Of a stretch of 33,723 nucleotides of DNA, positions 3,385 through 28,189 are shown piece after piece (the stretch's first letter is position 1; each line of letters opens with the position of its first letter). Under the pieces are notes generated by a model, which was not told the DNA's origin, searched no databases, and was given only the letters and a program-made list of their open reading frames with translations. The stretch comes from Promethearchaeota archaeon (GTDB lineage: Archaea; Asgardarchaeota; Lokiarchaeia; Sigyniarchaeales; SOKP01): NCBI GenBank assembly GCA_048939445.1, contig JBHLPN010000006.1:1-33723 (forward strand). The letters run 5' to 3'. The position numbers were made by a program, and so were the translations under genes.

Positions 3385-4386
3385 TCAACAAGATGTTAAT
3401 TTTGATTTTTCTATATCTGGAGTATTTCTTCCATTATTTTCTATTTTTTTTGTCAATCCAGACCAATGAGGATTTTTAACACCACTAGATTCTGCAATTT
3501 TTAAAAAATATTCCATTTCTTCTTCCTTCATTAATGGCTCGTTCTTTAATTGCCATTCCATATCTAATCTTTCATATTTTGAGATACAAAGATTATTAAA
3601 AGAAAGAAGATCCCATCTTTCAGGAAAATTATTTAATTTTTTTACAATAAACTCTCCTATCCCTTTAATATTTTCTTCAATAGCAGTGTAATGAGGGATA
3701 ATTGGCGTTCTAATCCACATTTTTTTACCAGCTTTTTCTAATTTTTTAGAAATCCAAATCGCGTTTTCCAATATTAAATCATTAGGGACTCCTGTGAATT
3801 CTTTATGTTTATCAGAATCTATAAGTTTTAAATCTAAAAGTACTAAATCAACATACGGTAAAATTTGTTCATAAACCTTTTTGGAAGCATATCCACATGT
3901 ATCTATAGCAGTCGAGATTCCATTTTCTTTACACTTTTTTAAAAAATCCGTAACAAAATCAGGTTGTTGTGTAGGTTCACCACCAGAAACAGTTACTCCT
4001 CCATTAGATTTAGTGTAATATACCTTGTCTTTTTCGATTTCAAAGAAAAGATCTTCTAACTTCCACCATCTACCTAACAGATTTAATGCTGTAGAAGGAC
4101 ATTCGTCTACACATTCTCCGCTTCCTATACACTTTTTTCTATCAATAATTAATCCATCCTCGTCAAATGATAATGCTTTTTGTTGGCAGGTTTCTATACA
4201 TGTCCTGCAACCTATACATTTATGTTTAAACCACTCAAGTTGAGGTATTTTAAGTATTGACTCGGGATTATGACACCATATGCAATTTAAAGGGCATTGT
4301 TTAAAAAATACGGTTGTTCGTATACCCGGACCATCTTCAGTTGAAAATTTCTGAATTTGAAAAATTAATGCTTCGGAGGTTCCCAT
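3385..4386 (-). CDS. glycyl-radical enzyme activating protein (radical SAM with ferredoxin insertion)
   Basis: IQKFSTEDGPGIRTTVFFKQCPLNCIWCHNPES (CX3CX2C), CxxCxxCxxxC insert, GGVTVSGGEP, DTCG. ATG 4386 is preferred over TTG 4425. Confidence 0.92.
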   Translation of the reverse strand: MGTSEALIFQIQKFSTEDGPGIRTTVFFKQCPLNCIWCHNPESILKIPQLEWFKHKCIGCRTCIETCQQKALSFDEDGLIIDRKKCIGSGECVDECPSTALNLLGRWWKLEDLFFEIEKDKVYYTKSNGGVTVSGGEPTQQPDFVTDFLKKCKENGISTAIDTCGYASKKVYEQILPYVDLVLLDLKLIDSDKHKEFTGVPNDLILENAIWISKKLEKAGKKMWIRTPIIPHYTAIEENIKGIGEFIVKKLNNFPERWDLLSFNNLCISKYERLDMEWQLKNEPLMKEEEMEYFLKIAESSGVKNPHWSGLTKKIENNGRNTPDIEKSKLTSC

Positions 4387-4441
4387 GATCTTAATTTTAT
4401 CATTTAGTTTTAATAATGTTTTCAAAATAAATCAAAAATTT

Positions 4442-12509: not shown

Positions 12510-13640
12510 TTAATAATATCTTAATATATTATATAAAGTATCTCTTTGAGCGGGTTTCTTTCCAGCAGCTTTAATTATTGTAATAATTTCTTCTGCCGAT
12601 AAATATTGACCAAATTCTGCTCCAGCACTTCTGGATATATTTTCTTCCATTAAAGTTCCAGAGAAATCGTTTACACCGAAATTTAAAGACACTTGAGCAA
12701 GTTTTGGACCCAATTTCACCCAACTACATTGTATATTATCAATATAATTATTTAAAAATATCCGAGATACACAAAACAATTTTAAATCCGCTATACCATA
12801 ACTAGGATTCAAAGGATGTTTATCTAATCTTGATAATATAGGATTTTCTTTTACAAAAGGCAAAGGCACAAATTCAGTGAATCCTTTGGTTTCTTTTTGA
12901 ATTTCTCTTAAGACTTCTAAATGTGTTATTCGATCATTTAAAGATTCTATGTGTCCATACATGATAGTTGAAGTCGTTGGGATACCTAAATTATGAGCTG
13001 TAGTGATTATATCAATCCATTGCGATGTAGAGACTTTATTTGGACATATAATTCTTCGTATATCATCAACCAGAATCTCTGCTGCTGTTCCTGGAATGGA
13101 GTCTAATCCAGCCTTTTTTAATATTTTTAATGTGTTTTCTATTGAACTCTTATATAATTTTGACATAAAATAGATTTCTTGAGGAGAAAAAGCATGAGTA
13201 TGAATGTTTTGATCTATTCCTTTTACAAGTCGAAGAATATCTAAATAAAAATCAAATTTTAATTCAGGATTGATTCCCCCTTGAATACATACTTCTGAAC
13301 AATCTGAATTTTTTGCTTCAATAACTCTATCCTTAATCTCCTCTAATGTAAGTGTGAATGCATCTTTATGATTAGATGGCAAGCTAAAAGAACAGAATTT
13401 GCATCCTTGAAAGCACACATTAGTAAAATTTATATTTCGATTAATTACAAAAGTTACGACTTCTTTTTTTTTTTCAAAACAAATTTGATTAGCAACAAAT
13501 TGTAGAGCAAAAAATTCTTTACCATCTACTTTTAATAATTTTAAAGCTTCCTTTGAGGTAATTTCCTCATTTTTTAATGCTTTTTCTAAAATACCCTTTA
13601 TTTCTGGTTTTAGCTGGTTTAAGAAATGAGAATTTAACAT
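12510..13640 (-). CDS. cofH: FO synthase subunit CofH (radical SAM)
   Basis: TFVINRNINFTNVCFQGCKFCSF, CIQGG, HAFSPQE, PGTAAEIL, EFVPLPF, NIQCSWVKLG, GTLMEENISRSAG; TAATG-coupled to cofG. Confidence 0.9.
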   Translation of the reverse strand: MLNSHFLNQLKPEIKGILEKALKNEEITSKEALKLLKVDGKEFFALQFVANQICFEKKKEVVTFVINRNINFTNVCFQGCKFCSFSLPSNHKDAFTLTLEEIKDRVIEAKNSDCSEVCIQGGINPELKFDFYLDILRLVKGIDQNIHTHAFSPQEIYFMSKLYKSSIENTLKILKKAGLDSIPGTAAEILVDDIRRIICPNKVSTSQWIDIITTAHNLGIPTTSTIMYGHIESLNDRITHLEVLREIQKETKGFTEFVPLPFVKENPILSRLDKHPLNPSYGIADLKLFCVSRIFLNNYIDNIQCSWVKLGPKLAQVSLNFGVNDFSGTLMEENISRSAGAEFGQYLSAEEIITIIKAAGKKPAQRDTLYNILRYY

Positions 13641-14743
13641 TAATAATTTATATTATCTATAATTTTTTTAATATTTTCTGGACAGTAATCACTTTTTTGG
13701 ATGTATTTATTATAGATTGGAAGTCTTTCTTTGAGTTTATAGCCTTTAGCCTCACAAATTTTATTTAAATCATCAATTTGAGGCCACATATTTTCAGGAT
13801 TTATATAATCTAATGTAATAGGTGATATTCCCCCAAAATCGTCAATCCCCATATCGATAAACTCTTTTTCAAAACCTATTATAAGATTTGGGGGTGCTTG
13901 AATAGCAATTTCATTCTCAAATATAATACGAGCAATTCCGGATATTTTGAGCATTTCTTCGATAGTAATTGGTTTTTTAGGTTGAAATGGAATATTTTCT
14001 TTATTCACAAAATTCTGAATGATAACCTCTTGAATATGCCCATATTCCTCATGGATTTTTTTAATTAAATATATATCTCTTATGATATCTTCTATAGTTT
14101 CTCCAATACCTATTAATAAGCCTGTAGTAAATGGAATTTTTAATTTTCCAGCATTATTAATGTGCTTTAATCTTTTTGTTGGTAATTTTCCAGGAGAATG
14201 TTCATGTGCTTTCCCTTTTTTAAAAAGTTCCATACTTGTACTTTCAAGCATCAATCCCATACTTGCATTATATCTTTTTAATTCCTTCATTTCATCATAA
14301 GTCAAAAATCCTATATTTGTATGAGGTAGAATATTAAAATTAAGTAAATTTATACAAATCTCTTTTACAAATGCTATGAAGTCTGAATAATTCCTTTTTT
14401 TTAACTCATTTTTGACATCAGGAAGTCTTTCTGGACGTTCTCCAGACATTAGGAGAGCTTCTTTGCAGTTATATTGAAGACCTTTTTGAATTAATGTATG
14501 AATTTGCTCATTACTAAGCAAGATTACGTTACCCTCACCACTTGGTTTAGGGATTTTATAATTATAAAAACAATATCCACATTGATTAATACAATAGTTC
14601 GAAAGAGAAAGTGTAAAATTCTTGGAATAAGTTATTATGTTTTTTTCATTAGTCGGTAATTGCTCCTTTATTTTTTTAACTCTTCCTCTTATTTCTTTCA
14701 ATGTAAGCTTTTTAAAGCTTTCAATTTCGTTATTTTTTATCAT
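13640..14743 (-). CDS. cofG: FO synthase subunit CofG (radical SAM)
   Basis: ITYSKN...CINQCGYC, LPHTN, NASMGLMLES, PFTTGLLIGIGE, GHIQEVIIQNF, QAPPNL, DFGGISPITLDYINPE. Confidence 0.92.
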   Translation of the reverse strand: MIKNNEIESFKKLTLKEIRGRVKKIKEQLPTNEKNIITYSKNFTLSLSNYCINQCGYCFYNYKIPKPSGEGNVILLSNEQIHTLIQKGLQYNCKEALLMSGERPERLPDVKNELKKRNYSDFIAFVKEICINLLNFNILPHTNIGFLTYDEMKELKRYNASMGLMLESTSMELFKKGKAHEHSPGKLPTKRLKHINNAGKLKIPFTTGLLIGIGETIEDIIRDIYLIKKIHEEYGHIQEVIIQNFVNKENIPFQPKKPITIEEMLKISGIARIIFENEIAIQAPPNLIIGFEKEFIDMGIDDFGGISPITLDYINPENMWPQIDDLNKICEAKGYKLKERLPIYNKYIQKSDYCPENIKKIIDNINY

Positions 14744-14745
14744 TA

Positions 14746-15411
14746 TTAGTCCTTTTTGTATTTTAACACCACATAATTATCCCTACTTAAGATTTCAAGC
14801 AATTTAAACCTTGGTGCTTGAGCCATAGTTTCAAATCCTTTACCTTCAACAAGGGTAATTGCATCTTGACCACCAATTACCCATGGAGCAATGGTTAGCC
14901 TTATTTCATCTACTAAATTCATCTTAATAAAGCTCCAGTTCAATGTGCCACCCCCCTCTAATAAGAGCTTTTGAATCCCTACATTATAAAGAAGTGGCAT
15001 AAGATTCGATAAATTTACTTTCTTACCTTTACCAGCTTTTAATATCTTCACTCCTTTTGACTCAAAATCTTTGATTTTTTTCAATATTACATTTTCCGTG
15101 GTACATATTATCGTAGGATATGTTTGTGGCCGAAATGTAATTACTTTTGAATTAATAGGTATCGAAAGATTACTATCTACAACAATTCTATAATACCCCT
15201 TATGGTTATAAAATTTAATGTGAAGTTTAGGATTATCTTTCAATATAGTGTTTTTCCCCACGATAATACCATCCACTTGAGCCCTAAGTTTATGGACTTC
15301 TTTCCAATCTTCTCCATCAGACAACTCTGGATCTCCTGTTTTGGATGCTATCTTTCCATCAATAGTCATTGCAGCACTTAAAATGATATATGGGCGTTCA
15401 ATTTCTTTCAA
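14746..15411 (-). CDS. arfC: 2,5-diamino-6-ribosylamino-4(3H)-pyrimidinone 5'-phosphate reductase (stand-alone RibD C-terminal domain)
   Basis: RPYIILSAAMTIDGKIA, VHKLRA, GKNTILKDNP, LLLEGGGTLNWS, VDEIRLTIAP; no deaminase domain. Confidence 0.85.
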   Translation of the reverse strand: MKEIERPYIILSAAMTIDGKIASKTGDPELSDGEDWKEVHKLRAQVDGIIVGKNTILKDNPKLHIKFYNHKGYYRIVVDSNLSIPINSKVITFRPQTYPTIICTTENVILKKIKDFESKGVKILKAGKGKKVNLSNLMPLLYNVGIQKLLLEGGGTLNWSFIKMNLVDEIRLTIAPWVIGGQDAITLVEGKGFETMAQAPRFKLLEILSRDNYVVLKYKKD

Positions 15412-16567
15412 ATACTAACTCTCCTTTGATATAAGTTTTTTTAATATTTTCTGATTTTGTTCTTTGAGTAATTAAATCTAATATATTATTAGAGTTTAAT
15501 TTATAAGAAAATAGATTTGGATCATAAAGATTAATTAAAAAGAAGTCAGCAAATTTTCCCTTTGAAATCGAGCCAAACTCATTTTCAAGATTAAAACTTT
15601 TTGCAGCATTAATAGTAACCATTTTCAATAAATCCTTAGAAGTGAATTTAAGCTCTTCATCATAACTGCATAAAACTCTTGAAATTCGGTAAAAATATCG
15701 TATCTCTTCAAATAAATCAGTATTATTCACCATTAAATTGTCTGTACCTAATGATATTGGAATCTTTAATCTTAAAATTTCGCTAATGGGAGGAAAACCC
15801 AACCCAAAATATCCATTACAACGAGGACATAAAACAAGAGATTTATTATTTTTAATTATTTTTTCTAAATCTTTTGAAACAAATTTTGTCCCATGAATGA
15901 TTACATCAATAAAATTATCATTAAACATTTCATTTATTAAATTAATATTACGAGTTTTCTCAGCACAGTGACATGCAACGATTTTTTTAAATTTATATTT
16001 AGCTGATACAATTAATTTTTTATTTGTTGAATTAATTTGTTTGTAACTGGATAATCCGACGCCATCTGCTAAATCGAAAATAGATTCTATTTCACTTTCA
16101 TCCATAAATCGCCCTAGGATTAAACTATTAATTGAATTATCAGTAAGCGCCTTTTTTAGAAGATTTACCCCTTCAATCCCTCCCTCTCGAAAATCAATGA
16201 AAAATGTAATACCATTTGATAGCATTTCTAAAACTGCATTTTGAATTCCTTTAATTTTGATATTTTCAGGGATTTGCCTTAATAATTTATGCTTAAGACC
16301 AAATGGAGGAGCAACGATCTCTGATATTTCTTTATTAAAACCCAATTCTTTAGCAAAACTATCCCCGATATGAACATGCGCGTTTATAAATCCCGGAATT
16401 AATAAGAAATTCTGATAATTCGGGAGAATTTCTAAATCTTTAGCGACATCTTCATATGAGATATCCATAATTTTTCCAGTGTGATCAATTTCTAAATTTA
16501 CATTCTGTTTTAAGTGTAAATTATCTCCAATTAGAGCATATTTACTAAATAAAGATTTATTAGCCAT
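15398..16567 (-). CDS. metal-dependent amidohydrolase/deaminase (TIM barrel)
   Basis: PGFINAHVHIGDS (HxH), HCAE, IIHGT, LCPRCN, LGTDN, GKFADF; overlaps the arfC start by 14 nt. Confidence 0.85.
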   Translation of the reverse strand: MANKSLFSKYALIGDNLHLKQNVNLEIDHTGKIMDISYEDVAKDLEILPNYQNFLLIPGFINAHVHIGDSFAKELGFNKEISEIVAPPFGLKHKLLRQIPENIKIKGIQNAVLEMLSNGITFFIDFREGGIEGVNLLKKALTDNSINSLILGRFMDESEIESIFDLADGVGLSSYKQINSTNKKLIVSAKYKFKKIVACHCAEKTRNINLINEMFNDNFIDVIIHGTKFVSKDLEKIIKNNKSLVLCPRCNGYFGLGFPPISEILRLKIPISLGTDNLMVNNTDLFEEIRYFYRISRVLCSYDEELKFTSKDLLKMVTINAAKSFNLENEFGSISKGKFADFFLINLYDPNLFSYKLNSNNILDLITQRTKSENIKKTYIKGELVFERN

Positions 16568-17785: not shown

Positions 17786-18991
17786 TTATCTTATCCTTAA
17801 AATACCCTTATAAATTAATACATAATTCTTTACACCTATAATCTTAGGATTTCTCCTATAACTTAAAGGGATAGGAGCATTACATCGAGAACAAAGACCA
17901 GAGGTTCTAAGCCAATCTTTAAATTCGTCTGCGTGAGCTGGATATCTGCAATTCGGACATAAAACTATTCCTCTGCCATTATCTCTAGGATATTCTGGTA
18001 ATTTGAAACAAAAAATACATTTAAAATCTTCTAACGACAAATTTGCAGCCTTTGGCCTATACAATTTTAAATTTATGCGCTTTACGGTGCTCTGACTCCT
18101 TCTAACTGGTTTAGTTGTTCTACTCGTGCGTGTAGTACGAGAAGTCGTTTTAACTCGAGAACTTTTGGATTGAACACGCCCAGTAGGCGTTGATCTTGAT
18201 GATTGAGAAATTGTTCTTGAAGTTCGAGTTTCTGTTCTAGTTGATGGTGTTGGAGATGATCTTGATCTAGTTGTAGTACGGGTACTTTGTCTCCTAGGAG
18301 TTGTATTTCTTGTTGGTGCTGTTAATTGGTTTAATCTCCTTGTACGTCTTGTTATGTAGTCTCTAGTTAATTGAGGTAATTGCGATCTAGTTCCAAATAA
18401 TCCAGGTACAATCAATATGAGTATAGTACTGATAAGTAATATCAAAAGATTAAGATCTATTAAAAAATGTAAAGGTATTAATAAAGTCCCATAGAAATCT
18501 ACAAGTGAATAAAAACTAATCCAATAAATAATTATGAAAAAAAGAATTGAGGTACTTAAAATATAACCAAAAATACGTGCTTTAACTGACTTTGTCCCAA
18601 AATAAATTACATTATATTTTTTAAAACAATAATATAAAGAAATTGAACCATATAATATATAGGGAAATCCGAATAGAAGACTCCACAAGCTTAAATATAA
18701 ACCTGTACCTTCCAGAAGATTTTCTCCTAATAAACCGGTAAAATTACCCCAAATTGAATAAAAAATTCCCATAAAAACAGGACCAATTGTAAAAAAAGCA
18801 GTATTGTGAGGAGAATTAAATTCACGATATTGTTTAATGTTTTTTATAACTTTAAAAGAAAATATCAACCAGATTCCAATTAATATCCAACTTACAAATA
18901 CATTGAAAGAATTTATAATAGCCCCATGGATTATACCAATTACCAAAAATATTGCCAATGTAATAACGACAGATTTAATTTTAGCCTTAAT
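17786..18991 (-). CDS. multi-pass membrane protein (~6 TM) with an S/T/R-rich linker and C-terminal RING-like zinc finger; putative E3 ligase (ORF-track start 18958, probable ATT start 18991)
   Basis: About six hydrophobic segments, then a low-complexity linker, then CxxC-x16-CxxC-x4-H-xx-E-xxx-W-x6-CxxC; last gene of the Ubl-E1-E2-JAMM run. Confidence 0.72.
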   Translation of the reverse strand: MKAKIKSVVITLAIFLVIGIIHGAIINSFNVFVSWILIGIWLIFSFKVIKNIKQYREFNSPHNTAFFTIGPVFMGIFYSIWGNFTGLLGENLLEGTGLYLSLWSLLFGFPYILYGSISLYYCFKKYNVIYFGTKSVKARIFGYILSTSILFFIIIYWISFYSLVDFYGTLLIPLHFLIDLNLLILLISTILILIVPGLFGTRSQLPQLTRDYITRRTRRLNQLTAPTRNTTPRRQSTRTTTRSRSSPTPSTRTETRTSRTISQSSRSTPTGRVQSKSSRVKTTSRTTRTSRTTKPVRRSQSTVKRINLKLYRPKAANLSLEDFKCIFCFKLPEYPRDNGRGIVLCPNCRYPAHADEFKDWLRTSGLCSRCNAPIPLSYRRNPKIIGVKNYVLIYKGILRIR

Positions 18992-19016: not shown

Positions 19017-19829
19017 TTAATCTTCATCATATTCAAGGTATACTGCTTTCCCTTCTATTATAGGATTTATAAATTTTAAAATTTCCGGTAGCATTTGTAC
19101 ATCTAATGATCCTTTAATCCCATATACCAATGGATACCACGTTCTAGATTTAAAATCTGCCTTATATATTTCAAATCCAGTAGATTTACCATCAATTTGA
19201 TAAGGATCGATAACAAGGGCAACAGCTTTATCCCAAAGCTTTTGATATCTTGCTTGAGTTCCCATATCTTCATTAGACATAAAGCATCCATATGATGGGT
19301 GTGAATGATACCAACCACAAATGAATAATTTCTGTCTTTTGATATCTTTAAAGGCTTTCACATAATTTTTATAATCTTTGATTTCTGCATAAACTGCTGT
19401 GCCGTGCCCCATTGGATAAGAATCTTCAATATGTAGTATATTATTTTTATCTATTTTTCCTGCAAGAAGCCCTATGACCTCCACCCATCTTTCTCTTGGA
19501 ATCTTAGAATTAGCATATTTAAGTGCATGACTCGCTATTTTAAGAATCGCTTTTACTGAAATATAAATTTCTTTTTCTATTTCTTCTTCTTTGAAAATTT
19601 CCGCTTCTCTTTTTTCTACAATATTAGTTGTAGGTATCTTTGTAAGTTTTATAATTGGTTTAGCAGACGATTTTTTTGTAAGCATTGAAGAGATTTCTTC
19701 TGTTAATTCATCTTCTTCTAACTGAAGTTCTTCATATATTTCGTCTATTAATTCTTGCTTTATTTTTGCTTTTATCTTCCTTTTAATTACATCTTTAATT
19801 GAATTATTATTAACATCTTTATTTTCCAT
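19017..19829 (-). CDS. JAB1/MPN+ (JAMM) metalloisopeptidase, Rpn11/CSN5-like, with a charged N-terminal extension
   Basis: EVIGLL...GWYHSHPSYGCFMSNED.TQ..YQ...AVALVIDP is an intact JAMM motif. ATG 19829 follows a GGTGA that overlaps the E2 stop codon. Confidence 0.9.
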   Translation of the reverse strand: MENKDVNNNSIKDVIKRKIKAKIKQELIDEIYEELQLEEDELTEEISSMLTKKSSAKPIIKLTKIPTTNIVEKREAEIFKEEEIEKEIYISVKAILKIASHALKYANSKIPRERWVEVIGLLAGKIDKNNILHIEDSYPMGHGTAVYAEIKDYKNYVKAFKDIKRQKLFICGWYHSHPSYGCFMSNEDMGTQARYQKLWDKAVALVIDPYQIDGKSTGFEIYKADFKSRTWYPLVYGIKGSLDVQMLPEILKFINPIIEGKAVYLEYDED

Positions 19830-19836
19830 TAAGGAA

Positions 19837-20364
19837 TCACCATTTTTTATTTGCATATTTCTTAACAAGATTTTTAACTTTTTTCTCGAAAAATTTTGGA
19901 TTTTTCATCATTTCTATCGCTGCTTTTTTATTAAAAACATCAGTTGGATTTACATATTTACCACGTGTATTTAACATAGCAATTATTGCTTGAACAACAG
20001 TAACCGCTGTTTTTGAGGGACTCCATCCTCCTCGTTTACCGACTAATGAGGGATCTACTAATGCTAGACATATATTTCTCTGTCCCTTATATTCAGATGG
20101 TTTTGGCCAGAAATTTGGATGCCAAATTGGAGTATGCATTCTTACGAAAGGAGGTTGTTTGGGATATTGAGCAGGAAATCTCATTTCTAATCTAAAAAGA
20201 CCACCTGCATAAACAGTCCCTTTAGGTCCTTTAAAAGAGATTGCTAAATGATCAATACTTTTTCTTTTTGGATTAAATGGTTTTAATTGAACTATACTTC
20301 CCTCTTTAACCATCTTTTTTAATCCTGCAAAATCTCGGGAAATACGACTACTTCTTATACTCAT
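19837..20364 (-). CDS. ubiquitin-conjugating enzyme E2 (UBC fold)
   Basis: GPKGTVYAGGLF...FPAQYPKQPP...TPIWHPN...NIC (catalytic Cys)...WSP...NKKAA. Confidence 0.93.
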   Translation of the reverse strand: MSIRSSRISRDFAGLKKMVKEGSIVQLKPFNPKRKSIDHLAISFKGPKGTVYAGGLFRLEMRFPAQYPKQPPFVRMHTPIWHPNFWPKPSEYKGQRNICLALVDPSLVGKRGGWSPSKTAVTVVQAIIAMLNTRGKYVNPTDVFNKKAAIEMMKNPKFFEKKVKNLVKKYANKKW

Positions 20365-20444: not shown

Positions 20445-21704
20445 TTAAAACCTTTTCTGATTCAAATTTTGCTTTATTTTTAATGTTACAAAAATTTCTC
20501 CACCTTTAAACCCAGCAGCTGTCATAAGTTCGTAATTTCTTAAGTCATTTTCAATAGGATTCTTTTCTAAATCAACGATCTTTATATCATTGAAATCTTG
20601 TAAAGTGAGAATTGGCTCAGAATCTGGATCCATTTTATATCCATTTTTCTTTAGTATTTTAATTATATTCATGCAAGGTGATTGGGATCTCATTTTTATA
20701 GATACTCGTCGCACTTTTTTGCCGCATTGAGAACATTCTGAATTTCTATGCTTTTCAATATGATAAAATTTCATTGTAATTGCATTATAGATTACGTAAT
20801 TTCTTATAGGTTCGCCTAATCCTTTATGACCCTTTTTCCAATGAAGGATTTTTATTGTTTCATGTGATTGTAATGCTGAAATAACTGCGTTTATAGTAAT
20901 TATACCAGGATCGTGCCTATCAAGGATTTTAACAATATCATCTTCAGTATAATCAGGTAAGAAATTGTGTTTATATACTAGTTCATTAGCAATATCTTTG
21001 ATGAATTTAATATCATTAACGTTTTTTGGATTTGGATCTCTATTAAATTTTTCTTTAAATGCCATATCTCCTTTAAAAACGCAATGTATCCTTTTTCGAG
21101 GGATTCCTACCACTGTGCAAGCAGCCATCTCATCACTCTCTCCTACGGGTAACGGATTACATTCATAACAAGCATTTTTATAGGGAAATACTGTGTACAC
21201 ATGACCATGATAACCAGAAACTCCTCCGTCTACTAATGGTTTTTTAAATCTTATACACTGTGCGTTCAAGTTTAAACGTGCATTCATCGAATCAAGACCT
21301 CCAACAACAACATCAGCAGCTTGATATAATGCTGGATTCAATCGTTCTAAAGAAGTATAATATCCTTTAACAATAATATTTGGATTAATTTCCTTTAGTT
21401 TTCTGGCAGCAACAATCGCCTTTGGCTCTCCTATATTCGCTCCAGCAAAAAGAATTTGACGGTTCAAATTAGAATGTTCAATGATATCTAAATCAATAAG
21501 ATCTAAACGACCAACGCCAAGCATGGCTAAATTTTTAGCAATTTCGCAACCTAAACCTCCAACTCCAATTATTACTACTCTTGAGTTCTTTACTAATTTC
21601 TGAGACCAACCCTCCAAACGAAATTGACGGTCATACAAGTTTCTCTCTTCCACTGATAAATCTTTTGTAAAAAAATCTGAATCCTTATCCAATATTATCA
21701 CCAT
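20445..21704 (-). CDS. ubiquitin-like activating enzyme E1, Uba2/Uba3-type architecture
   Basis: YDRQ, GVGGLGCE, DLDIIEHSNLNRQ, CYEC, catalytic-Cys loop ACTVVGIPRKRIHC, PGIITINAVIS, CSQC, and an ~80-aa C-terminal extension (probable UFD). Alternative start TTG 21692. Confidence 0.92.
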   Translation of the reverse strand: MVIILDKDSDFFTKDLSVEERNLYDRQFRLEGWSQKLVKNSRVVIIGVGGLGCEIAKNLAMLGVGRLDLIDLDIIEHSNLNRQILFAGANIGEPKAIVAARKLKEINPNIIVKGYYTSLERLNPALYQAADVVVGGLDSMNARLNLNAQCIRFKKPLVDGGVSGYHGHVYTVFPYKNACYECNPLPVGESDEMAACTVVGIPRKRIHCVFKGDMAFKEKFNRDPNPKNVNDIKFIKDIANELVYKHNFLPDYTEDDIVKILDRHDPGIITINAVISALQSHETIKILHWKKGHKGLGEPIRNYVIYNAITMKFYHIEKHRNSECSQCGKKVRRVSIKMRSQSPCMNIIKILKKNGYKMDPDSEPILTLQDFNDIKIVDLEKNPIENDLRNYELMTAAGFKGGEIFVTLKIKQNLNQKRF

Positions 21705-21783: not shown

Positions 21784-22113
21784 CTACCCAGCAGTACTCG
21801 CAGGGATTAATAGAATATCGTCGCCATCTCTTATATCATAATCTCTCAAAGTACTGTTTTCATCCATCGTAACCCCTCCAGAAGAAATATGAAAATCATT
21901 AGGATCAAGTCCATATAGATTTCCTAATGTTTCTTTAATATCTCTTACATGATTGCTGTCATTTACAGTTAATTTTTCTTTCTTTTCACCAGGACCAATT
22001 GTTGACATGAAATATAAAGTCAATTTCTTTCCTGCTGAAGGAGTTTTACCTGCGGGAGTTTTAGATTTTAATGGTTCTCCACCTAATTCTTCATCAAATT
22101 CATCAAAACTCAT
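21784..22113 (-). CDS. ubiquitin-like modifier 1 (beta-grasp), C-terminus -TAG (single terminal Gly)
   Basis: VRDIKETL...GVTMDENSTLRDYDIRDGDDILLIP resembles ubiquitin (TLSDYNI); directly upstream of E1; GGAAGTGA precedes the ATG. Confidence 0.88.
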   Translation of the reverse strand: MSFDEFDEELGGEPLKSKTPAGKTPSAGKKLTLYFMSTIGPGEKKEKLTVNDSNHVRDIKETLGNLYGLDPNDFHISSGGVTMDENSTLRDYDIRDGDDILLIPASTAG

Positions 22114-22388
22114 TCACATCACTTCCTTTTTTTTTTTTTATTTTATTACTTTTAGATTTATTGGACCTATTAAAATGGCATTAAAAATGTATTATAAAAC
22201 CCTTTGGAATGATTTTGAAGTTTTTTATGTTCTCATCAAAAACAAAAAAGAGAAAATTTGGAATGTAAAGAAATTATATTATAAATTGTATGAATGCCTA
22301 TAAATATATATAAGATACTAAAAGTTGTTTTAGAGAGATTACATAATTATAGAAACTAAATTTTTCAACGTAATATAAGTATGGGCTC

Positions 22389-23060
22389 ATGAGTTCTCCG
22401 GATAATGCAGAATCTGTCGTTTTTAAATTAGTAGAAGAGTATTTAACAAAAAAAACTTTTTTCTCAATTAGAGAAATTATATCTTATATAAATAACAGGG
22501 TGAGATACAAACCTAGTATAAACGAGAATAGAATAGAGTTGATTTTAAAGGATTTAATTAAAAGCCGTGTGATTATTCCTGGAACTAGATTAATGAAAAA
22601 CAATATTGTTGAACATCCAAAAAGGAATGAGATTTATAATTATATTAAAAAGACTCCTTCAAATATCAATGAAATAATGAGAGCGCTTAACATTGGTAGT
22701 AATCAAGTTTTATGGCATTTATCATGTTTAGAAAAATTCCAGTTCATTAGATCAAAACAAATTAACAATCATAAAATTTTCTTCAAATTTGATTCTGATC
22801 CAAAATTTGACTCGTTATACTATTATTTAAAAAAAGAAATCGTTCAAAAAATAATTAATTTTATGGAAAAAGAAAATAAGGGATTTAAGATTACAGAAAT
22901 AACAACTGCTTTAAAAAAAAATCACAGCACTATTAAAAAATATTTAGATATTCTAAAAAATATGGAATTAATAAAAATTGAGAAAGAAAAAAATAGAAAG
23001 ATATTCAAATTAGATTTAGAAAAATATACTAGGGCTAGAAAATCAATTCAAGGTGTATGA
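22389..23060 (+). CDS. multi winged-helix transcriptional regulator
   Basis: RNEIYNYIKK..SNINEIMRALNIGSNQVLWHLSCLEK and ITEITTALKKNHSTIKKYLDILK wHTH patterns; divergent from the Ubl operon. Confidence 0.75.
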   Translation: MSSPDNAESVVFKLVEEYLTKKTFFSIREIISYINNRVRYKPSINENRIELILKDLIKSRVIIPGTRLMKNNIVEHPKRNEIYNYIKKTPSNINEIMRALNIGSNQVLWHLSCLEKFQFIRSKQINNHKIFFKFDSDPKFDSLYYYLKKEIVQKIINFMEKENKGFKITEITTALKKNHSTIKKYLDILKNMELIKIEKEKNRKIFKLDLEKYTRARKSIQGV

Positions 23061-23145
23061 AATGAAAAACTCCAATTTTATTCCAATCCCATTTAAATTT
23101 TAATATATATATTTTAAATTCAGAAAATAATCTAATCAAAAAATC

Positions 23146-23940
23146 ATGAGAAAAAATTCTAGAATTTTGAGTGTTATCACTCTTTACGTTATCTGTATTT
23201 TGTGTTATATGTTTTATTTCCTATTTCATATAGAAAATACTCCTCTATTTCTTGTTCTAACTATTGGGAGTGTTGCTGTTTTATCCACTAGTACAATTTA
23301 TACAGTTATACAGTCTAAAAGTAGTCTAGATAAGAAAATACAAAAAAAAAAATACATAACAAAACCAAAATCAATTCAAAAAGACACTATTAATATCCTT
23401 GAAGATTATATTGATGCTATGCCTTCAATAGAAGAATATATTGAGTCAGATGAATCCTATAAGGATATGCCAATAATTGATAAATATATTTTTTCAATAT
23501 TTAGCAAGGAAGAATTAGCTAAAATTGATCTCTTAGAATTACCAAAAATGGATAAGATATTATTTATCAGAGAAATGCTATATTACGATCCAAATGAAAG
23601 AAAGGATTTAATTGAAAATATGTTGAAAAACAAGGATAATATTAATGGTGAGATAATATATTCATCCCCTATAAGCTCAATTAAAATGGAAGACCAGATT
23701 CGAGTTTATGTAAGATCATTAGTTGAGCCTGGTGAGAAAACGAAAATAATCATTGTTGATACAACTGAATTAATTAGGATAATTAAGGAAAAAATAGCAA
23801 TATTATTTGATTATGAGTTAGAAGATTTTCTCTTATCTAGCGGAGGAATATTGTTAAAAGAGCATTCACTAATAGGAGAATATGATATCGATGATGATGA
23901 TGAAATTGCTTTAATCCCCTCAAGAAAAGAAAGAAAATAA
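23146..23940 (+). CDS. membrane-anchored protein (2 N-terminal TM) with a C-terminal ubiquitin-like domain paralogous to the free Ubls
   Basis: Two hydrophobic segments. The last ~80 aa align without gaps to Ubl1 (PGEK, IKE, DF, SSGG, YDI, LIP; 29/74 identical by hand count). Ends SRKERK with no Gly. Confidence 0.8.
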   Translation: MRKNSRILSVITLYVICILCYMFYFLFHIENTPLFLVLTIGSVAVLSTSTIYTVIQSKSSLDKKIQKKKYITKPKSIQKDTINILEDYIDAMPSIEEYIESDESYKDMPIIDKYIFSIFSKEELAKIDLLELPKMDKILFIREMLYYDPNERKDLIENMLKNKDNINGEIIYSSPISSIKMEDQIRVYVRSLVEPGEKTKIIIVDTTELIRIIKEKIAILFDYELEDFLLSSGGILLKEHSLIGEYDIDDDDEIALIPSRKERK

Positions 23941-23958
23941 AAAAAAGATCGTAATTTT

Positions 23959-24387
23959 TTAACCAGCTATACTTGCTGGAATTAGAAGTATGTCATCCCC
24001 ATCAGAAACATTAAAATCTCTTAATATACTATTTTCATCCATTGTTACACCACCAGACGATAAGTAAAAATCAGCAGGATCCAAACCAAACAAATTTGCT
24101 ACAGTTTCTTTAATCTCACCAACTAGATTGCCATCATTAATGGTTAATTTTTGTTTTTTCTCACCTGGGCCAATAGTAGACATGAAATATACTGAAATCT
24201 TTTTCCCTCCATGAATGATCTTTTTAGAAGGTGTTTTGGATTCAACTTCCTTCTTTTCTATCTCTGTAAAAGGTTCTTCGATATCTTCTTCCATGTCTTC
24301 TTCTATTTCTTCATCTAGATCTTCTAAATCTTCATCAAATTCTTGCTCATCAAATTCTTGCTCATCAAATTCATCATCAAAGCCCAT
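23959..24387 (-). CDS. ubiquitin-like modifier 2 with a long acidic N-terminal tail, C-terminus -IAG
   Basis: 61/82 identical to Ubl1 over the core by hand count; residues 1-50 are Asp/Glu-rich. Confidence 0.88.
   Translation of the reverse strand: MGFDDEFDEQEFDEQEFDEDLEDLDEEIEEDMEEDIEEPFTEIEKKEVESKTPSKKIIHGGKKISVYFMSTIGPGEKKQKLTINDGNLVGEIKETVANLFGLDPADFYLSSGGVTMDENSILRDFNVSDGDDILLIPASIAG
24332..24372. repeat. 15-bp coding tandem repeat (EFDEQ units) in the Ubl2 tail
   Basis: TCATCAAATTCTTGC twice plus a partial third copy. Confidence 0.75.
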
Positions 24388-24571
24388 AAAATAGACCCCA
24401 AAATATTAAATATTTTTATTTTAAATATAATTCTGATATTTTTTTTCTAAGATTATATGAAAATAATAGAAACTAAGCTATATAAATAGAATTAACAAAA
24501 AGATAAAGTTAATTATTTTAGTCAATATTCATATGAATTTATTAATGGAGGAAGTTAATGATTGAAACATT

Positions 24572-25753
24572 ATGAATGACAAACCTATTCCCAAATATCA
24601 AATTCGAGAAAAGACACCAGATGAAGAACTTGATACATTTCCAGATAAAAAATTACTGAAGAAAATAAAAAAAGAAAGAATCAAGTTAGATAAAGAAAAA
24701 AATGAATGGGAAAAAACGATCAATCAAATTGAAAAATACAAAGAAAATGTTGAAGATCTCGAAAAGAAAAGAAAAGAAAAAGAACTTAAAATTAAATTTC
24801 TTCTTGAACAACGAGATAACTTAAAAAATGAGTTAGATAGAACTAAAAATCAAATAGAACAACAAAAGCAAGATTTAGCAGCTAAAGATCGTCAATTTAG
24901 AGAAAAAATCAGGAGTAAGAATGAAGAATTAGATCAAAAAAATGCTGAATTACATAGATTTCAAGAAAAATTAGATAATTTAAGAGAGGATATTGCAAAT
25001 CAAAAGAAGAATTTAGAATGGGAAAAAGAAAGAACAGAAAAACGAATAAAGGAAATTAAAACGAAGATTCCGGGTATGGAAAGAAGAGAAAATGCTTTAG
25101 AAAGAACTATTAATGAATTAGAAAAAAAGTTAATGGATTTAAGAAATGAAATTAAAGATTTAACTAAAGAAAGAGATAACTTAAATAGGGAAATTAATAA
25201 TCTAAGGAGAGAGATTATTGATGAGAAAAATCGAATTTCTGATGAAAAGCAAAAACTTAAAGAAGAAAGAGAAAAAATTCGTTATAAAAAACAAGATGTA
25301 AATCTAAAGTCTCGTGAACTTGATAAAAAAAGAGCAGATCTAAAAAAGTATAAAGATAAACTAGCAAATGATGTAAATAATTTAGAAAAAAGAAGACGAC
25401 AACAGGAAATGAGATTAAAAGACTTAGAAAGAAAAGTTCCTGCTACAGAAAATAAATATAATTCCTTAAGTCGTAAAATTCCAAATTTAGAAGAAAAATT
25501 TAAAAAAATAAATAATGAATTTAGACAATTAGAAAAAGAAAAAACAAACTTAGATAGAGAAAAAAATCTTATTAAGCGTGAAAGAGAAAAATTAGAAAAG
25601 GATAAACAAAGATTTATAAAGGAAAAAAGAGAATTTGAAAGAGAACTAAGAAAGATTAAAACTAAAACTCCCTCAATTGAAACAAAGACTCCTTCGCAAA
25701 TTAAAACAAAAACTCCTTCGCAAATTAAAACAAAAACTCCTTCAAAATATTAA
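24572..25753 (+). CDS. long coiled-coil protein with an internal ~120-aa repeat and a C-terminal KTPS repeat tail
   Basis: About 330 aa of E/K/R/L-rich heptads with very few Pro/Gly; no P-loop or globular domain visible. Confidence 0.8.
   Translation: MNDKPIPKYQIREKTPDEELDTFPDKKLLKKIKKERIKLDKEKNEWEKTINQIEKYKENVEDLEKKRKEKELKIKFLLEQRDNLKNELDRTKNQIEQQKQDLAAKDRQFREKIRSKNEELDQKNAELHRFQEKLDNLREDIANQKKNLEWEKERTEKRIKEIKTKIPGMERRENALERTINELEKKLMDLRNEIKDLTKERDNLNREINNLRREIIDEKNRISDEKQKLKEEREKIRYKKQDVNLKSRELDKKRADLKKYKDKLANDVNNLEKRRRQQEMRLKDLERKVPATENKYNSLSRKIPNLEEKFKKINNEFRQLEKEKTNLDREKNLIKREREKLEKDKQRFIKEKREFERELRKIKTKTPSIETKTPSQIKTKTPSQIKTKTPSKY
25655..25744 (+). repeat. 21-24 bp coding tandem repeat encoding (Q)I[KE]TKTPS x4
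   Basis: CAAATTAAAACAAAAACTCCTTC[G/A] at 25697-25720 and 25721-25744, with two more diverged copies upstream. Confidence 0.85.
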
Positions 25754-25764
25754 TTATTTATAAT

Positions 25765-26811
25765 GTGAAATTCATGAATAATGTTGGAGCAATTGAAGGA
25801 GATTATATAGAAACAAAAAAAGAAAATTTATTTTTTGATGTAAAAGGTCTTCTCCATCCAAATGATTATATCGTCTGCTTTTTACGATTTTTTCCTCATC
25901 CAGAGGGAGAACGGATAAAAAATGGTACTAATTATAAAAAAGTTTACAGACTAAACGAACGATATACCCTTTTGAGAAAATATTATCCACACTTTCTTTT
26001 TTATTCGAAGGAACTCGATTTAGAGGTTCAAGGAGTTAAAAAGGAAGAAATTAAAAAAATATATTCTCCAAGAACCTTCTTTAAAGATTTATTGGGAAAA
26101 CATGAGTTATCTAATGGTGAAAGATCTTCAAAAGAGTTATGTCAATTGTTAATTAATAAAGGAAATCTTTCTGAGAAATCAATTGGGATTACTGGATCAA
26201 CAATGGTAGGATTAAATACTGAAGATTCTGACATTGATATAATAATTTATGGTACTGAGACAAGTTTAAAATTTCAAGAGGATTTGGCACAGATTTTTAA
26301 AAAATCAAATAATTTTCGGAAGTATAAAATAGATGAATATAAGACTCATTATGATTGGAGAGTTGGTGGTTCAAATATTCCATTTGAAGATTTTTTGAGG
26401 AGTGAACAAAGGAAACTCCATCAAGGTAAATTTTATAATCATGATTTTTTTATTAGGTACATTAAAAGTCCAAAAGATTGGAATGGGAGTTTTTATGATT
26501 ATCAATATAAAAATTATGGAAGAATTAAACTTAAAGCAGAAATAATAGATTCAAAATATTCTATTTTTACTCCTTGTTTATATAAAATAAATCCTATAAA
26601 AATTCTCGAAAAAAGAATAAATTCAAAGAAAATTAAACTAAAAGACATAAGTTCCATAAATTCGTTCAGAGGTCGTTTTTGTGAACACGCAAGAGAAAAG
26701 GAAAATGTAATAGTTGAAGGAAAGTTAGAAAAGGTGATTTTTAAGAATGAAATAGAATATTTAAGAATTTTATTAAGTGACCCTATTCATGATAAAATGA
26801 TCATTATTTAG
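25765..26811 (+). CDS. archaeal Pol-beta-superfamily nucleotidyltransferase (COG1665-like) with C-terminal OB-like region (start may be ATG 25774)
   Basis: IGITGSTMVGLNTEDSDIDIIIYG (GS..DxD), FDVKGLLHP, SIFTPCLY, SFRGRFCE, VEGKLEKV. Confidence 0.75.
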   Translation: MKFMNNVGAIEGDYIETKKENLFFDVKGLLHPNDYIVCFLRFFPHPEGERIKNGTNYKKVYRLNERYTLLRKYYPHFLFYSKELDLEVQGVKKEEIKKIYSPRTFFKDLLGKHELSNGERSSKELCQLLINKGNLSEKSIGITGSTMVGLNTEDSDIDIIIYGTETSLKFQEDLAQIFKKSNNFRKYKIDEYKTHYDWRVGGSNIPFEDFLRSEQRKLHQGKFYNHDFFIRYIKSPKDWNGSFYDYQYKNYGRIKLKAEIIDSKYSIFTPCLYKINPIKILEKRINSKKIKLKDISSINSFRGRFCEHAREKENVIVEGKLEKVIFKNEIEYLRILLSDPIHDKMIII

Positions 26812-26878
26812 TGATAAATAAAAGATTCTTAATTTAATTGATATTAAATAATTATAAAATTAGTATTTCATAAACCAA

Positions 26879-28189
26879 ATGGATATTTATAACGCAGATT
26901 TACATATACATTCTCCACATTCAATAGGAGTATCGAAATCATTGAATTTAGACACGATAATCGATACTTGTAAAAAAAAAGGTTTGAATATTTTAGGAAC
27001 TGGAGATGTTTTACAGCCAGATTGGTTAAAATATTTAGAACAAAAACTTGATAAAGATAAAGATAAAGCTTATTGTTATAAGGATGTTTATTTTATCCTC
27101 CAAACTGAAATAGAAGATCAAGAAAGCGTTCATGAAGTTATCTTCTTTGAAGATTTTGACATGGTAAGAAATATCCGAAAAAAATTAATCCCCCACTCAA
27201 AAAATATTTTGAGTGAATGGGGTGGTCGTCCAAGAGTCAATTTATCCCCAGCAGAATTAGCTGATATTGTTTCAGATGAAGGTGCTTTAATTGGACCCGC
27301 TCATGCTTTCACACCTTTTAAAGCAATTTTTCGACAAAACAAATTTAAAACACTTGAAGAATGTTATATTGATGCGACTAAAAAAATCAGTTTCATTGAA
27401 TTAGGACTTTCTGCAAACACTGATTTAGCAGATAGATTGGAATGTTTACAAAATGTGACTTTTTTAAGCAACAGTGATGCCCATTCGCAAGATCCTCGTG
27501 CTTTAGGAAGAGAATTTAACAGATTCGATATTGATAATCCCTCTTATTATGAAGTTTTACAAGCAATACAGAGGAAAAATGGAAGAAAAATTACATTAAA
27601 TGTAGGTTTAAATCCTAAACTTGGAAAATATTATATAATGTTTTGTAATAAATGCAGAAGAAGAATATTATTTAAGGAAAGGAAAAAGCAAGTAAATACT
27701 ATCTTTAATCAATATTCAATATCAGAAAATTTTGTTATATATTACTCGACTACTCCTCTTTCTTCAAGATTAGATTATTTAGAGCAAGTTTCTAAAAACA
27801 AAATCAACTGTCCAGCATGTAAAGAACAATATAATAAAAATTTTAAAGTTAAATTAGGAGTGAGTGAAAGAATTGAAAAAATATCTACATCTATTGAACC
27901 TAAACATCCAAATCATAGACCTCCATATGTTAATGCTATACCTTTAATTGATATTATTCGTGCTGTAAAAAATATTAAAAGCACAACTAGTAAAACAGTA
28001 TTGAATGATTATAATAAAATAATTCAAGAACTTGGAACTGAATTTGAGATATTACTTGATATTCCTAATAATAAGATCGAGGAGTTTAATAAAAATATAG
28101 CTTTAATTATAAAAGCTCTTAGGAATGATGAGGTTGAATATACTCCTGGAGGAGGAGGCACATATGGGCAAATAAATCTGAAAATTTGA
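26879..28189 (+). CDS. endonuclease Q-like PHP-domain protein with zinc ribbon (TIGR00375/COG1379-like)
   Basis: DLHIHS, GTGD, GRP, PAHAFTP, ELGLSA, SNSDAHS, LGREFN, GKYY, CxxC...CPAC, GVSERI, RPPY, GTEFEIL, PGGGGTYG. Confidence 0.85.
   Translation: MDIYNADLHIHSPHSIGVSKSLNLDTIIDTCKKKGLNILGTGDVLQPDWLKYLEQKLDKDKDKAYCYKDVYFILQTEIEDQESVHEVIFFEDFDMVRNIRKKLIPHSKNILSEWGGRPRVNLSPAELADIVSDEGALIGPAHAFTPFKAIFRQNKFKTLEECYIDATKKISFIELGLSANTDLADRLECLQNVTFLSNSDAHSQDPRALGREFNRFDIDNPSYYEVLQAIQRKNGRKITLNVGLNPKLGKYYIMFCNKCRRRILFKERKKQVNTIFNQYSISENFVIYYSTTPLSSRLDYLEQVSKNKINCPACKEQYNKNFKVKLGVSERIEKISTSIEPKHPNHRPPYVNAIPLIDIIRAVKNIKSTTSKTVLNDYNKIIQELGTEFEILLDIPNNKIEEFNKNIALIIKALRNDEVEYTPGGGGTYGQINLKI

Follow-up and report, generated by a model that had tools for sequence, protein, structure and literature searches.

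Among the described archaeal ubiquitin-type systems, the closest to the one analyzed here is the operon of Caldiarchaeum subterraneum, which encodes ubiquitin, E1, E2, a small RING finger protein, and Rpn11 (PMC5654768, PMC6043591). In the parts of the report drawn on here, the reconstituted cascade yields auto-modification and modification of a surrogate Rad50 substrate, chains are built through K4, K53, and K68, and no site consensus is mentioned (PMC5654768). Asgard archaea also possess ubiquitin-ESCRT clusters with E1/E2/RING cascades, and the sections of the sources used here describe an in-cluster substrate, UEV-Vps23, that is modified at K201 in vitro (PMC9192718; bioRxiv 10.1101/2023.07.25.550441). 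Here, we analyze contig JBHLPN010000006.1 (our contig C316) of a Promethearchaeota archaeon; the whole stretch of 33,723 nucleotides is referred to as the window. The window carries an operon for a ubiquitin-like (Ubl) modifier and its enzymes, and two Ubl proteins (Ubl1 and Ubl2) and a neighboring coiled-coil protein without a named family (CC) share the motif hydrophobic-x-[S/T/E]-K-T-P. This is very likely a selected, functional short linear motif tied to the Ubl system, and it probably marks the site where the Ubl machinery attaches to, or grips, a dedicated partner.

The window encodes the same enzyme types as the Caldiarchaeum operon (PMC5654768, PMC6043591), with a RING-like protein as the candidate E3 and a JAMM protease encoded alongside, and the structural model of Ubl1 is closest to the Caldiarchaeum ubiquitin structure. 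The two differ at the modifier's end, which is G-G in Caldiarchaeum ubiquitin according to the portion of the report used here (PMC5654768) and A-G in the window Ubls. In addition, the RING-like domain of the window is fused to a multi-pass membrane domain, and a motif-sharing partner lies beside the Ubl. The Asgard ubiquitin-ESCRT clusters combine a G-G ubiquitin with adjacent ESCRT genes, and no shared linear motif is described in the sections used (PMC9192718; bioRxiv 10.1101/2023.07.25.550441); in contrast, there are no ESCRT genes among the open reading frames (ORFs) of the window. The enzyme set otherwise matches the known Caldiarchaeum-type archaeal operon. We found no description of the shared motif or of the CC partner in the papers searched; supplementary Asgard catalogues may list the genes without the motif.

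SUMO is attached at the consensus hydrophobic-K-x-D/E, which is read by the E2 Ubc9, and a consensus lysine in the N-terminal tail of SUMO-2/3 allows chains to form. The motif described here is similarly centered on a lysine that is not replaceable, has a hydrophobic position upstream of it, and is found both in disordered regions and in the modifier's own N-terminal tail, shortly before the fold. It differs in having the form hydrophobic-x-[S/T/E]-K-T-P with no acidic residue at +2, and conjugation and E2 binding are only proposed here. The window motif is also confined to the proteins of the operon, whereas the SUMO site occurs in hundreds of substrates. Because the sequence rule differs, the likeness is one of "works like" rather than of membership.

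A lysine-centered motif in two Ubl proteins and a coiled-coil protein

Ubl1 (21784..22113, minus strand) is a ubiquitin-fold modifier of 109 aa (Pfam ubiquitin PF00240, E 1.7e-7) that ends in A-G and begins with a tail of approximately 28 residues, acidic first and basic after. The tail contains a motif pair, S-K-T-P-A-G-K-T-P-S (residues 17-26; 22036..22065, minus strand), with K-T-P-A at residues 18-21 and K-T-P-S at 23-26. Its paralogue Ubl2 (23959..24387, minus strand; 142 aa) has a longer acidic tail, also ends in A-G, and matches the Pfam ubiquitin family at E 1.1e-3, under the curated cut-off. Ubl2 has one copy, V-E-S-K-T-P-S (residues 48-54; 24226..24246, minus strand), which continues so that residues 50-56 read S-K-T-P-S-K-K. 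CC (24572..25753, plus strand; 393 aa) lies head-to-head with Ubl2 and is divergently transcribed. It carries E-K-T-P-D at residues 13-17 as part of a composite motif, I-P-K-x-x-I-x-E-K-T-P (residues 6-16; 24587..24619, plus strand), and four copies of T-K-T-P-S between residues 364 and 391. The latter form the C-terminal tail (residues 362-393; 25655..25750, plus strand), which consists of four I/E-x-T-K-T-P-S units and closes with K-T-P-S-K-Y. The K-T-P strings listed in an initial annotation of the window are all present in the proteins to which they were assigned.

The same annotation had ascribed the four C-terminal copies of CC to tandem duplication of DNA. Tandem Repeats Finder reports a repeat at 25655-25743 (period 24 bp, 3.8 copies, 86% matches), which supports this origin. 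It had also described the two Ubl tails as otherwise dissimilar. The acidic parts do differ in length, but Ubl2 is 66% identical to residues 9-109 of Ubl1 and the motif lies within the aligned stretch. The motif shared by the two Ubls was thus inherited with the paralogues and did not arise independently.

To follow the motif in relatives, we retrieved 33 loci and sorted their ORFs by BLAST. The gene calls at these loci are our own longest-ORF calls, and some Ubl ORFs begin upstream of the likely true start; the compared genomes are related to one another, and counts across them are not independent. Ubl1 had matches in 34 of 41 related genomes (24/24 in family f1, 6/11 in f2, 1/1 in f3, and 2/4 in f4, in our numbering of families); the three single-contig genomes of the order in this sample (G032, G033, and G038) had none. 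The motif was conserved in orthologues from 24 other genomes of the same genus and in all four families of the order. Within the genus, the first copy in Ubl1 was KTP in 22 of 22 sequences, and the second kept its K and P in 22 of 22, with T (15), I (4), V (2), or S (1) between them. The single copy in Ubl2 was retained in an otherwise acidic tail, as KTP in 23 of 24 sequences and as KVP in one. CC retained the N-terminal E-K-T-P in 24 of 24 same-genus orthologues and the C-terminal K-T-P-S-x-Y in all 23 that were full length; these have one to three KTP copies at the C-terminal end, the four in the window being the highest number.

Conservation extended beyond the genus. The free Ubls of f2, f3, and f4 had the motif in 8 of 8 cases, mostly in two copies, and an alignment of 12 diverse Ubls showed S-K-T-P (S17, K18, T19, and P20 of Ubl1) to be invariant while the rest of the tail varied. 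In an alignment of 23 CC proteins, four of which are from other families and only 28-36% identical overall, K14, P16, and K380-T381-P382 were invariant and T15 was at least 90% conserved. The motif persists where the remaining tail sequence cannot be aligned. In f2 and f3, the head-to-head neighbor of the Ubl gene is a coiled-coil protein 25-31% identical to CC, with one to five KTP, every copy at the protein ends.

The pooled consensus is [I/V/L]-x-[S/T/E]-K-T-P, with I, V, or L at -3 and with S or T at -1, or E in the N-terminal copy of CC. The residue preceding T-P was K in 119 of 127 instances in Ubl tails, 45 of 49 at CC N-terminal ends, and 63 of 63 at CC C-terminal ends (227/239 in total). 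The lysine is strict, and arginine is not tolerated: R preceded T-P in none of the 239 instances, although it makes up 9-34% of K+R in the motif segments and position -2 swaps K, R, and H freely. The +1 residue of K-x-P was T in 82 of 104 Ubl-tail, 37 of 43 CC N-terminal, and 57 of 65 CC C-terminal sites, and otherwise mostly I, V, A, or S. The 22 Ubl-tail exceptions were I (8), V (6), A (3), E (3), S (1), and F (1). Counting only sites with neither T nor S, the exceptions numbered 21/104, 6/43, and 6/65, respectively. Secondary copies replaced Thr with I, V, A, S, K, R, H, F, or Y while keeping K and P, and the middle residue in distant partners could likewise be K, R, H, F, or Y.

The consensus first proposed for the window, KTP[S/A], needs revision, as it treated +3 as a defining position and missed the conserved hydrophobic residue at -3 and the S/T/E at -1. 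Position +3 is variable: A or S accounts for 60 of 82 Ubl instances, D or E for 27 of 37 at the CC N-terminus, and S for 46 of 57 at the CC C-terminus; overall, P was followed by A, S, T, D, E, or G. Many CC proteins have a longer composite, I-P-K-x-x-I-x-x-K-T-P, common to both ends. The last copy in CC-type proteins lies 0-4 residues from the C-terminus, often followed by a final Y or F. CC also contains internal K-I-P and K-V-P strings at residues ~165, 289, and 302 (T-K-I-P-G, R-K-V-P-A, and R-K-I-P-N). These apparently lie at coiled-coil breaks and are partly conserved (P290 at least 90%, I303 invariant).

We then examined how specific the motif is within the host genome (3.36 Mb, 437 contigs, 88% complete, 29.6% G+C). 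As the proteome we used our own crude ORF calls, 3120 proteins with 963,368 residues in total, from which Ubl1 was lost to a longer overlapping ORF. KTP[SA] was not enriched proteome-wide: there were 20 occurrences in this set versus 15.5 expected, and KTP itself occurred 166 times versus 143 expected. However, 8 of the genome's 22 KTP[SA] fall in this 4-kb locus. One of the eight is the KTPS at residue 88 of the winged-helix protein encoded between the Ubl genes (22389..23060, plus strand; double winged-helix, ArsR-type; Pfam HTH_5, E 2.7e-10). We rejected this protein as a fourth motif carrier: none of its 20 full-length orthologues keeps KTP there, so the string is a chance occurrence.

In a scan of all six-frame open frames of at least 50 aa (1.66 million residues), two KTP within 25 residues were found in just four frames genome-wide, namely CC, Ubl1, and two short frames elsewhere (87 and 65 aa). 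The extended motif occurred 12 times in the crude proteome versus 6.6 expected, six times in CC and Ubl2 and six times elsewhere. The six outside the locus are at chance level, two of them lying in the glycine-rich loop of an FAD fold, and a proteome-wide network of motif carriers was therefore rejected.

Within the operon, the sequences of E1, E2, and the RING-like protein are free of K-[T/I/V/S/A]-P. A string in the linker of the JAMM protease, I-I-K-L-T-K-I-P-T (residues 70-82), was considered as a further copy and rejected. It occurs in 8 of the 15 sequences listed from the genus and in none from other families, and a string limited to part of the genus falls outside the conserved feature.

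Distribution of the motif and its partner proteins across Asgard archaea

A Ubl profile search of 151 sampled genomes of the Asgard phylum found the family in 45, belonging to families f1, f2, f7, f12, f16, f18, and f24, and in none of 20 other families. At 20 further loci, KTP was present in the tail of 23 of 24 free Ubls, and the remaining one had KVP. Coiled-coil partners with terminal motifs were also found in other genera of f1 and in f18. Across 11 coiled-coil-type partners from outside the genus, each had one to five KTP compared with 0.01-0.07 expected from its own composition, and every KTP lay within the first or last 45 residues. Conservation in orthologues had been suggested as a check on the motif, and it holds for the genus, for all four families of the order, and for further Asgard families. 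The proposed link of both Ubls to CC and to the Ubl system is supported across the order and beyond.

CC adjoins the Ubl gene in f1, f2, f3, and f18. In f4, the partner is encoded away from the free Ubl; a pattern search places it directly upstream of a gene for a vWA-Ubl fusion, with two KTP at its N-terminal end and KVP and KHP at its C-terminal end. This f4 relative has a genome of 61.5% G+C, and its partner protein contains 48 K and 54 R, yet all four of its [K/R]-x-P sites have K. Retention of lysine in such an R-rich protein argues against an effect of composition. In f7, f16, and f24, K/P-rich proteins (215-290 aa) that begin and end in K-hydrophobic-P-K units take the position of the partner. 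Family f24 (loci L091-L093; e.g., L092, 7541-7921) additionally encodes a protein of 126-149 aa, divergently transcribed from the Ubl pair, with a Pfam VAPB_antitox match just below the cut-off (E 6.5e-6). An internal R-H-R-I-x-x-K-T-P makes this small protein a third carrier of the motif in f24.

When 1.84 billion representative proteins were searched for the Ubl family, 1050 matched at E ≤ 0.001. We inspected 45 of the 150 matches listed, choosing those whose matched stretches numbered one to three; the remaining 105 were multi-stretch, polyubiquitin-like proteins and were left out. KTP was present in 23 of these 45, typically 8-20 residues ahead of the fold. As with polyubiquitin, relatives of the window Ubl occur as head-to-tail di- and tri-Ubl genes and as C-terminal fusions. 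The repeats differ from polyubiquitin in that each unit (P0123, di-Ubl; P0122, tri-Ubl) has its own acidic tail and K-T-P ahead of the fold. In the fusions, the Ubl domain forms the C-terminal end of HerA-like ATPases, vWA/CDC48_N proteins, and Zn-ribbon coiled-coil proteins. Fusions of the latter two kinds are among the 23 proteins with KTP, as is one whose N-terminal domain looked Roadblock-like by eye. Examples of fusion and poly-Ubl proteins are P0122, P0123, P0131-P0135, P0141, P0168, L089 8572-10314, and L062 9691-10959. Because the Ubl domain is C-terminal and its conjugatable end is free, whole proteins might be ligated via their Ubl. In addition, the C-terminal tail of CC and the pre-Ubl linker of P0135, a Zn-ribbon/coiled-coil/Ubl fusion, share 18 of 21 residues.

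Conjugation machinery and candidate roles of the motif

The AlphaFold2 model of Ubl1, built from a 40-sequence alignment, has a beta-grasp fold over residues 30-104 (pLDDT ~86). Its tail, residues 1-28, has block means of 47-56, with 24 residues below a pLDDT of 50, no secondary structure, and no packing against the domain. The motif is thus predicted to lie in an exposed, disordered segment. The best Foldseek match was Caldiarchaeum ubiquitin (6fno_D; E 1.1e-7, TM 0.79 by target), followed, among the rows shown, by ubiquitin variants, SUMO1, ISG15, and NEDD8. Ufm1 homologues have been reported in Asgard archaea, and the part of that report used here mentions multi-domain matches (PMC12962969). 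Ubl1 shares with them a ubiquitin fold that does not end in G-G, and the spacing of its C-terminal I-P-x5-G made a UFM1 type worth considering. We rejected this assignment for Ubl1, as no UFM1 structure appeared among the rows shown for its model and the sequence profile finds ubiquitin. The window E2 has the canonical H-P-N.

Both window Ubls end in I-P-A-S-T/I-A-G, with no Gly-Gly, and their orthologues likewise end in A-G. In other genomes (L046, L051, L052, L057-L063), one to six extra residues follow the A-G, so that the Ubl would need trimming, presumably by the JAMM protease. This enzyme (19017..19868, minus strand) is a Rpn11-like JAMM/MPN metalloprotease (Pfam JAB, E 1.2e-17), is kept in the module in every family examined, and is probably both the processing and the deconjugating enzyme.

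The E1-like activating enzyme (20445..21704, minus strand; 419 aa; Pfam ThiF, E 2.3e-59) adjoins the Ubl gene in every family examined. E2 (19837..20364, minus strand; Pfam UQ_con, E 1.1e-24) has a UBC fold in which an H-P-N motif and Cys99 are present and an extra loop follows the Cys. In an alignment of 19 E2 sequences, mean column identity was 88%, and H-P-N and Cys99 were invariant; the best solved relative was S. pombe Ubc15 (5knl, E 5.4e-16). The last gene of the operon (17786..18958, minus strand) encodes a multi-pass membrane protein whose S/T/R-rich linker leads to a RING/U-box-like zinc finger at the C-terminus, and it is conserved in the module. The pattern C-x2-C...C-x2-C-x4-H...C-x2-C was invariant in 26 sequences and offers seven ligand positions, where a canonical RING has eight. 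The zinc-finger domain was modeled with a pLDDT of 91, and its best PDB matches in Foldseek were mostly RING/U-box E3 domains, all of them weak and none reaching E 0.001 (best E 4.4e-3, TM 0.45-0.62). We therefore treat this protein as RING-like in its model and as a candidate E3. With the finger fused to a membrane domain, conjugation would take place at the membrane if the protein is an E3.

Our preferred reading, held tentatively, is that the motif is a lysine-centered recognition site whose lysine most likely accepts the modifier, with CC as a dedicated substrate and the Ubl able to form chains. E2, alone or with the RING-like E3, would recognize the motif, and the central lysine would receive the Ubl. 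CC, with the motif at both ends, would be a substrate encoded with its own conjugation system, and chains could be formed from the Ubl, whose motif is positioned shortly ahead of the fold. Trimming of the Ubl and its removal from conjugates would fall to the JAMM protease. We infer conjugation at the lysine, reading of the motif by E2 or E3, and chain formation from the following features. Consensus positions lie on either side of the lysine, which is itself irreplaceable, and the sites are exposed and terminal. Furthermore, the sites are multiplied in CC, occur once or twice in the Ubl just before the fold, and are missing from a Ubl domain that cannot be conjugated. This last domain forms the C-terminus of a membrane protein (23146..23940, plus strand; Pfam ubiquitin, E 1.7e-6) that lacks a terminal Gly and has no KTP. 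Among its orthologues, 0 of 23 have KTP and all end in ...I-P-S-R-K-like sequences instead of A-G, which would preclude conjugation. Because the motif is present in poly-Ubl and fusion proteins and absent from this membrane Ubl, it appears to travel with conjugatable Ubl domains.

Several observations weigh against an acceptor lysine. A docking motif bound as an extended strand would just as typically show the conserved hydrophobic residue at -3, the tolerance of I or V at +1, and the aromatic residue that often comes at the end after the last copy. The motif sequence is also unlike the SUMO consensus. With a RING-like E3 present, recognition need not lie in E2. About one-third of the 45 inspected family members have no K-x-P before the fold, including some with a conjugatable C-terminus (for example, P0139, P0141, P0142, P0145, P0190, P0202, P0227, and P0269). 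The K/P-rich candidates of f7, f16, and f24 have K-x-P at only about twice the expected number (11-15 vs 6-9), and KTP is not prominent in them, which leaves their equivalence to CC tentative. Finally, because the compared genomes are related, their counts overstate independence. A complex prediction that combined E2 with the RING-like domain, the Ubl core, and, as partner, the CC C-terminal tail gave scores of 0.34, 0.09, and 0.09 against a mark of 0.32, for a case of four chains and a disordered 40-residue partner that is unlike the tool's calibration and was run with no controls; it weighs on neither side.

The motif could instead be a non-covalent docking motif, an extended peptide bound by one reader, whether E2, the RING-like domain, the JAMM protease, or an outside protein. 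CC and the Ubl would then be recruited to the same site, multivalently where there are several copies, and the lysine would be a contact residue. This is possible, and we consider it the strongest rival. It draws on the same conservation and specificity data, and it suits the alternating pattern, in which -3 is hydrophobic, -1 bears a small hydroxyl side chain, and +1 is beta-branched and can be I or V. Also in keeping with it are a copy number of one to five, a last copy that lies close to the C-terminus and is often followed by a final Y or F, and the location of the Ubl1 motif in a tail that is unstructured in the model. On the other hand, a contact or electrostatic role should accept an occasional R, yet none occurs in 239 instances, while -2 swaps among K, R, and H, and no candidate reader is singled out. 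The acceptor-lysine proposal of the initial annotation fits the strict lysine, the tail that is unstructured in the model, and a motif private to the operon, but a docking motif fits the same data.

It is also conceivable, but unlikely, that the motif has no specific reader. K-x-P would then be a trait of basic, proline-punctuated tails that bind, for example, membranes, nucleic acids, or the acidic part of the Ubl tail, or the copies would be helix-capping or linker elements from a common ancestral tail. The candidates of f7, f16, and f24, which are K/P-rich with many K-hydrophobic-P-K units, and the internal K-[I/V]-P strings at the coiled-coil breaks of CC would be consistent with this, and the T-P-D-E that follows the N-terminal copy of CC resembles a helix N-cap. 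However, generic tails would not keep S-K-T-P invariant, exclude R, or retain a single copy in the acidic tail of Ubl2, and the motif is kept in a high-G+C genome with abundant arginine.

The initial annotation had also offered Thr as a proline-directed phosphosite through which the Ubls and CC would be co-regulated. In its favor, T-P matches the minimal consensus for proline-directed kinases, the copy nearest the Ubl fold has T throughout the 12 diverse Ubls, and some copies read T-P-S-K. Even so, we judge this account to be very improbable, because Thr varies most among the three core residues and the system is not accompanied by a kinase. The middle residue is not T in 22 of 104 Ubl-tail, 6 of 43 CC N-terminal, and 8 of 65 CC C-terminal sites, and distant partners have K, R, H, F, or Y. 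There is no protein-kinase family among the window ORFs or in the conserved module, the genome beyond these not having been searched for kinases. KTP is also not enriched in the proteome, and the residues after P vary. Least probable of all is that the lysine is targeted by another modification, such as methylation, acetylation, or hydroxylation: a strict, exposed lysine would suit any lysine-directed enzyme, but the conserved module encodes no such modifying enzyme, the motif is confined to proteins of the Ubl operon, and E2 and the RING-like protein are the sole lysine-directed enzymes encoded alongside it.

Neighboring genes, further ubiquitin-type loci, and implications

The operon on the minus strand comprises Ubl1, the ThiF-type E1, the UBC-type E2, the JAMM/MPN protease, and the membrane RING-like protein. 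Beyond Ubl1, on its upstream side, lie the winged-helix gene, the membrane Ubl gene, Ubl2, and CC. All of these genes except CC are insertions, found among the loci examined only in genera g1 and g14 of f1. From this comparison of gene orders, the predicted ancestral arrangement is CC head-to-head with Ubl-E1-E2-JAMM-membrane RING-like. The middle domain of the membrane Ubl protein (23146-23940) has no family. For CC itself, Pfam yielded only sub-threshold coiled-coil matches, and an Atlas search returned only generic coiled-coil look-alikes with scores of 0.81 or lower, with no family named.

On the 3' side of CC (25765-28189), the window encodes a nucleotidyltransferase-fold protein and then a 436-aa protein with an N-terminal H-x-H string that is PHP-like by eye and has no Pfam match above the cut-off. 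In same-genus loci long enough to include it, and in the one g14 locus, the nucleotidyltransferase-fold gene again comes after CC; among relatives, the 436-aa gene was seen only in the g14 locus. Neither is present in other families; both probably lie outside the system. Metabolic genes unrelated to the Ubl system occupy 3385-6946 and 12510-16567. They include a glycyl-radical enzyme (PFL-like, 834 aa) with its radical-SAM activase, as well as radical-SAM (CofH/MqnC-like), RibD_C, and amidohydrolase genes in a run that adjoins a type I GTP cyclohydrolase (folE2).

The genome has at least three further E2/Ubl-type loci, making the system in the window one of several, and none of the 26 ORFs around its three other such loci contains KTP. 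Extra E1-like, E2-like, and JAMM genes and a Ubl ending in G-G were seen in this same genome (G000) on contigs C14 (17071-20333), C325 (133-2104), C393 (3385-3639), and C150 (1481-1654), with no KTP in the neighboring ORFs. A G-G Ubl at loci without KTP suggests that at least two separate ubiquitin-type systems coexist in this genome.

A more far-reaching possibility, which we consider doubtful, is that a covalent assembly is put together at the K-T-P lysines. E2 and the membrane RING-like ligase would join free Ubl and Ubl-ended proteins (HerA-like ATPases, vWA/CDC48_N proteins, and Zn-ribbon coiled-coil proteins) to both ends of the CC rod and to each other's pre-Ubl linkers, forming covalently linked scaffolds at the membrane that the JAMM protease could reverse. 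If so, this would be SUMO-like, consensus-directed conjugation with a genome-encoded substrate in the closest archaeal relatives of eukaryotes.

There has so far been essentially no knowledge of the native substrates and site rules of archaeal ubiquitin-type systems. This genome points to a candidate native partner, CC, encoded head-to-head with the Ubl, and to a six-residue, lysine-centered candidate site. If the motif proves to be a docking site, few if any linear motifs would have been defined earlier in an archaeal ubiquitin-type system. If its lysine is instead the acceptor of the Ubl, then consensus-directed conjugation and chain building on an N-terminal tail, known from SUMO, would exist in archaea.

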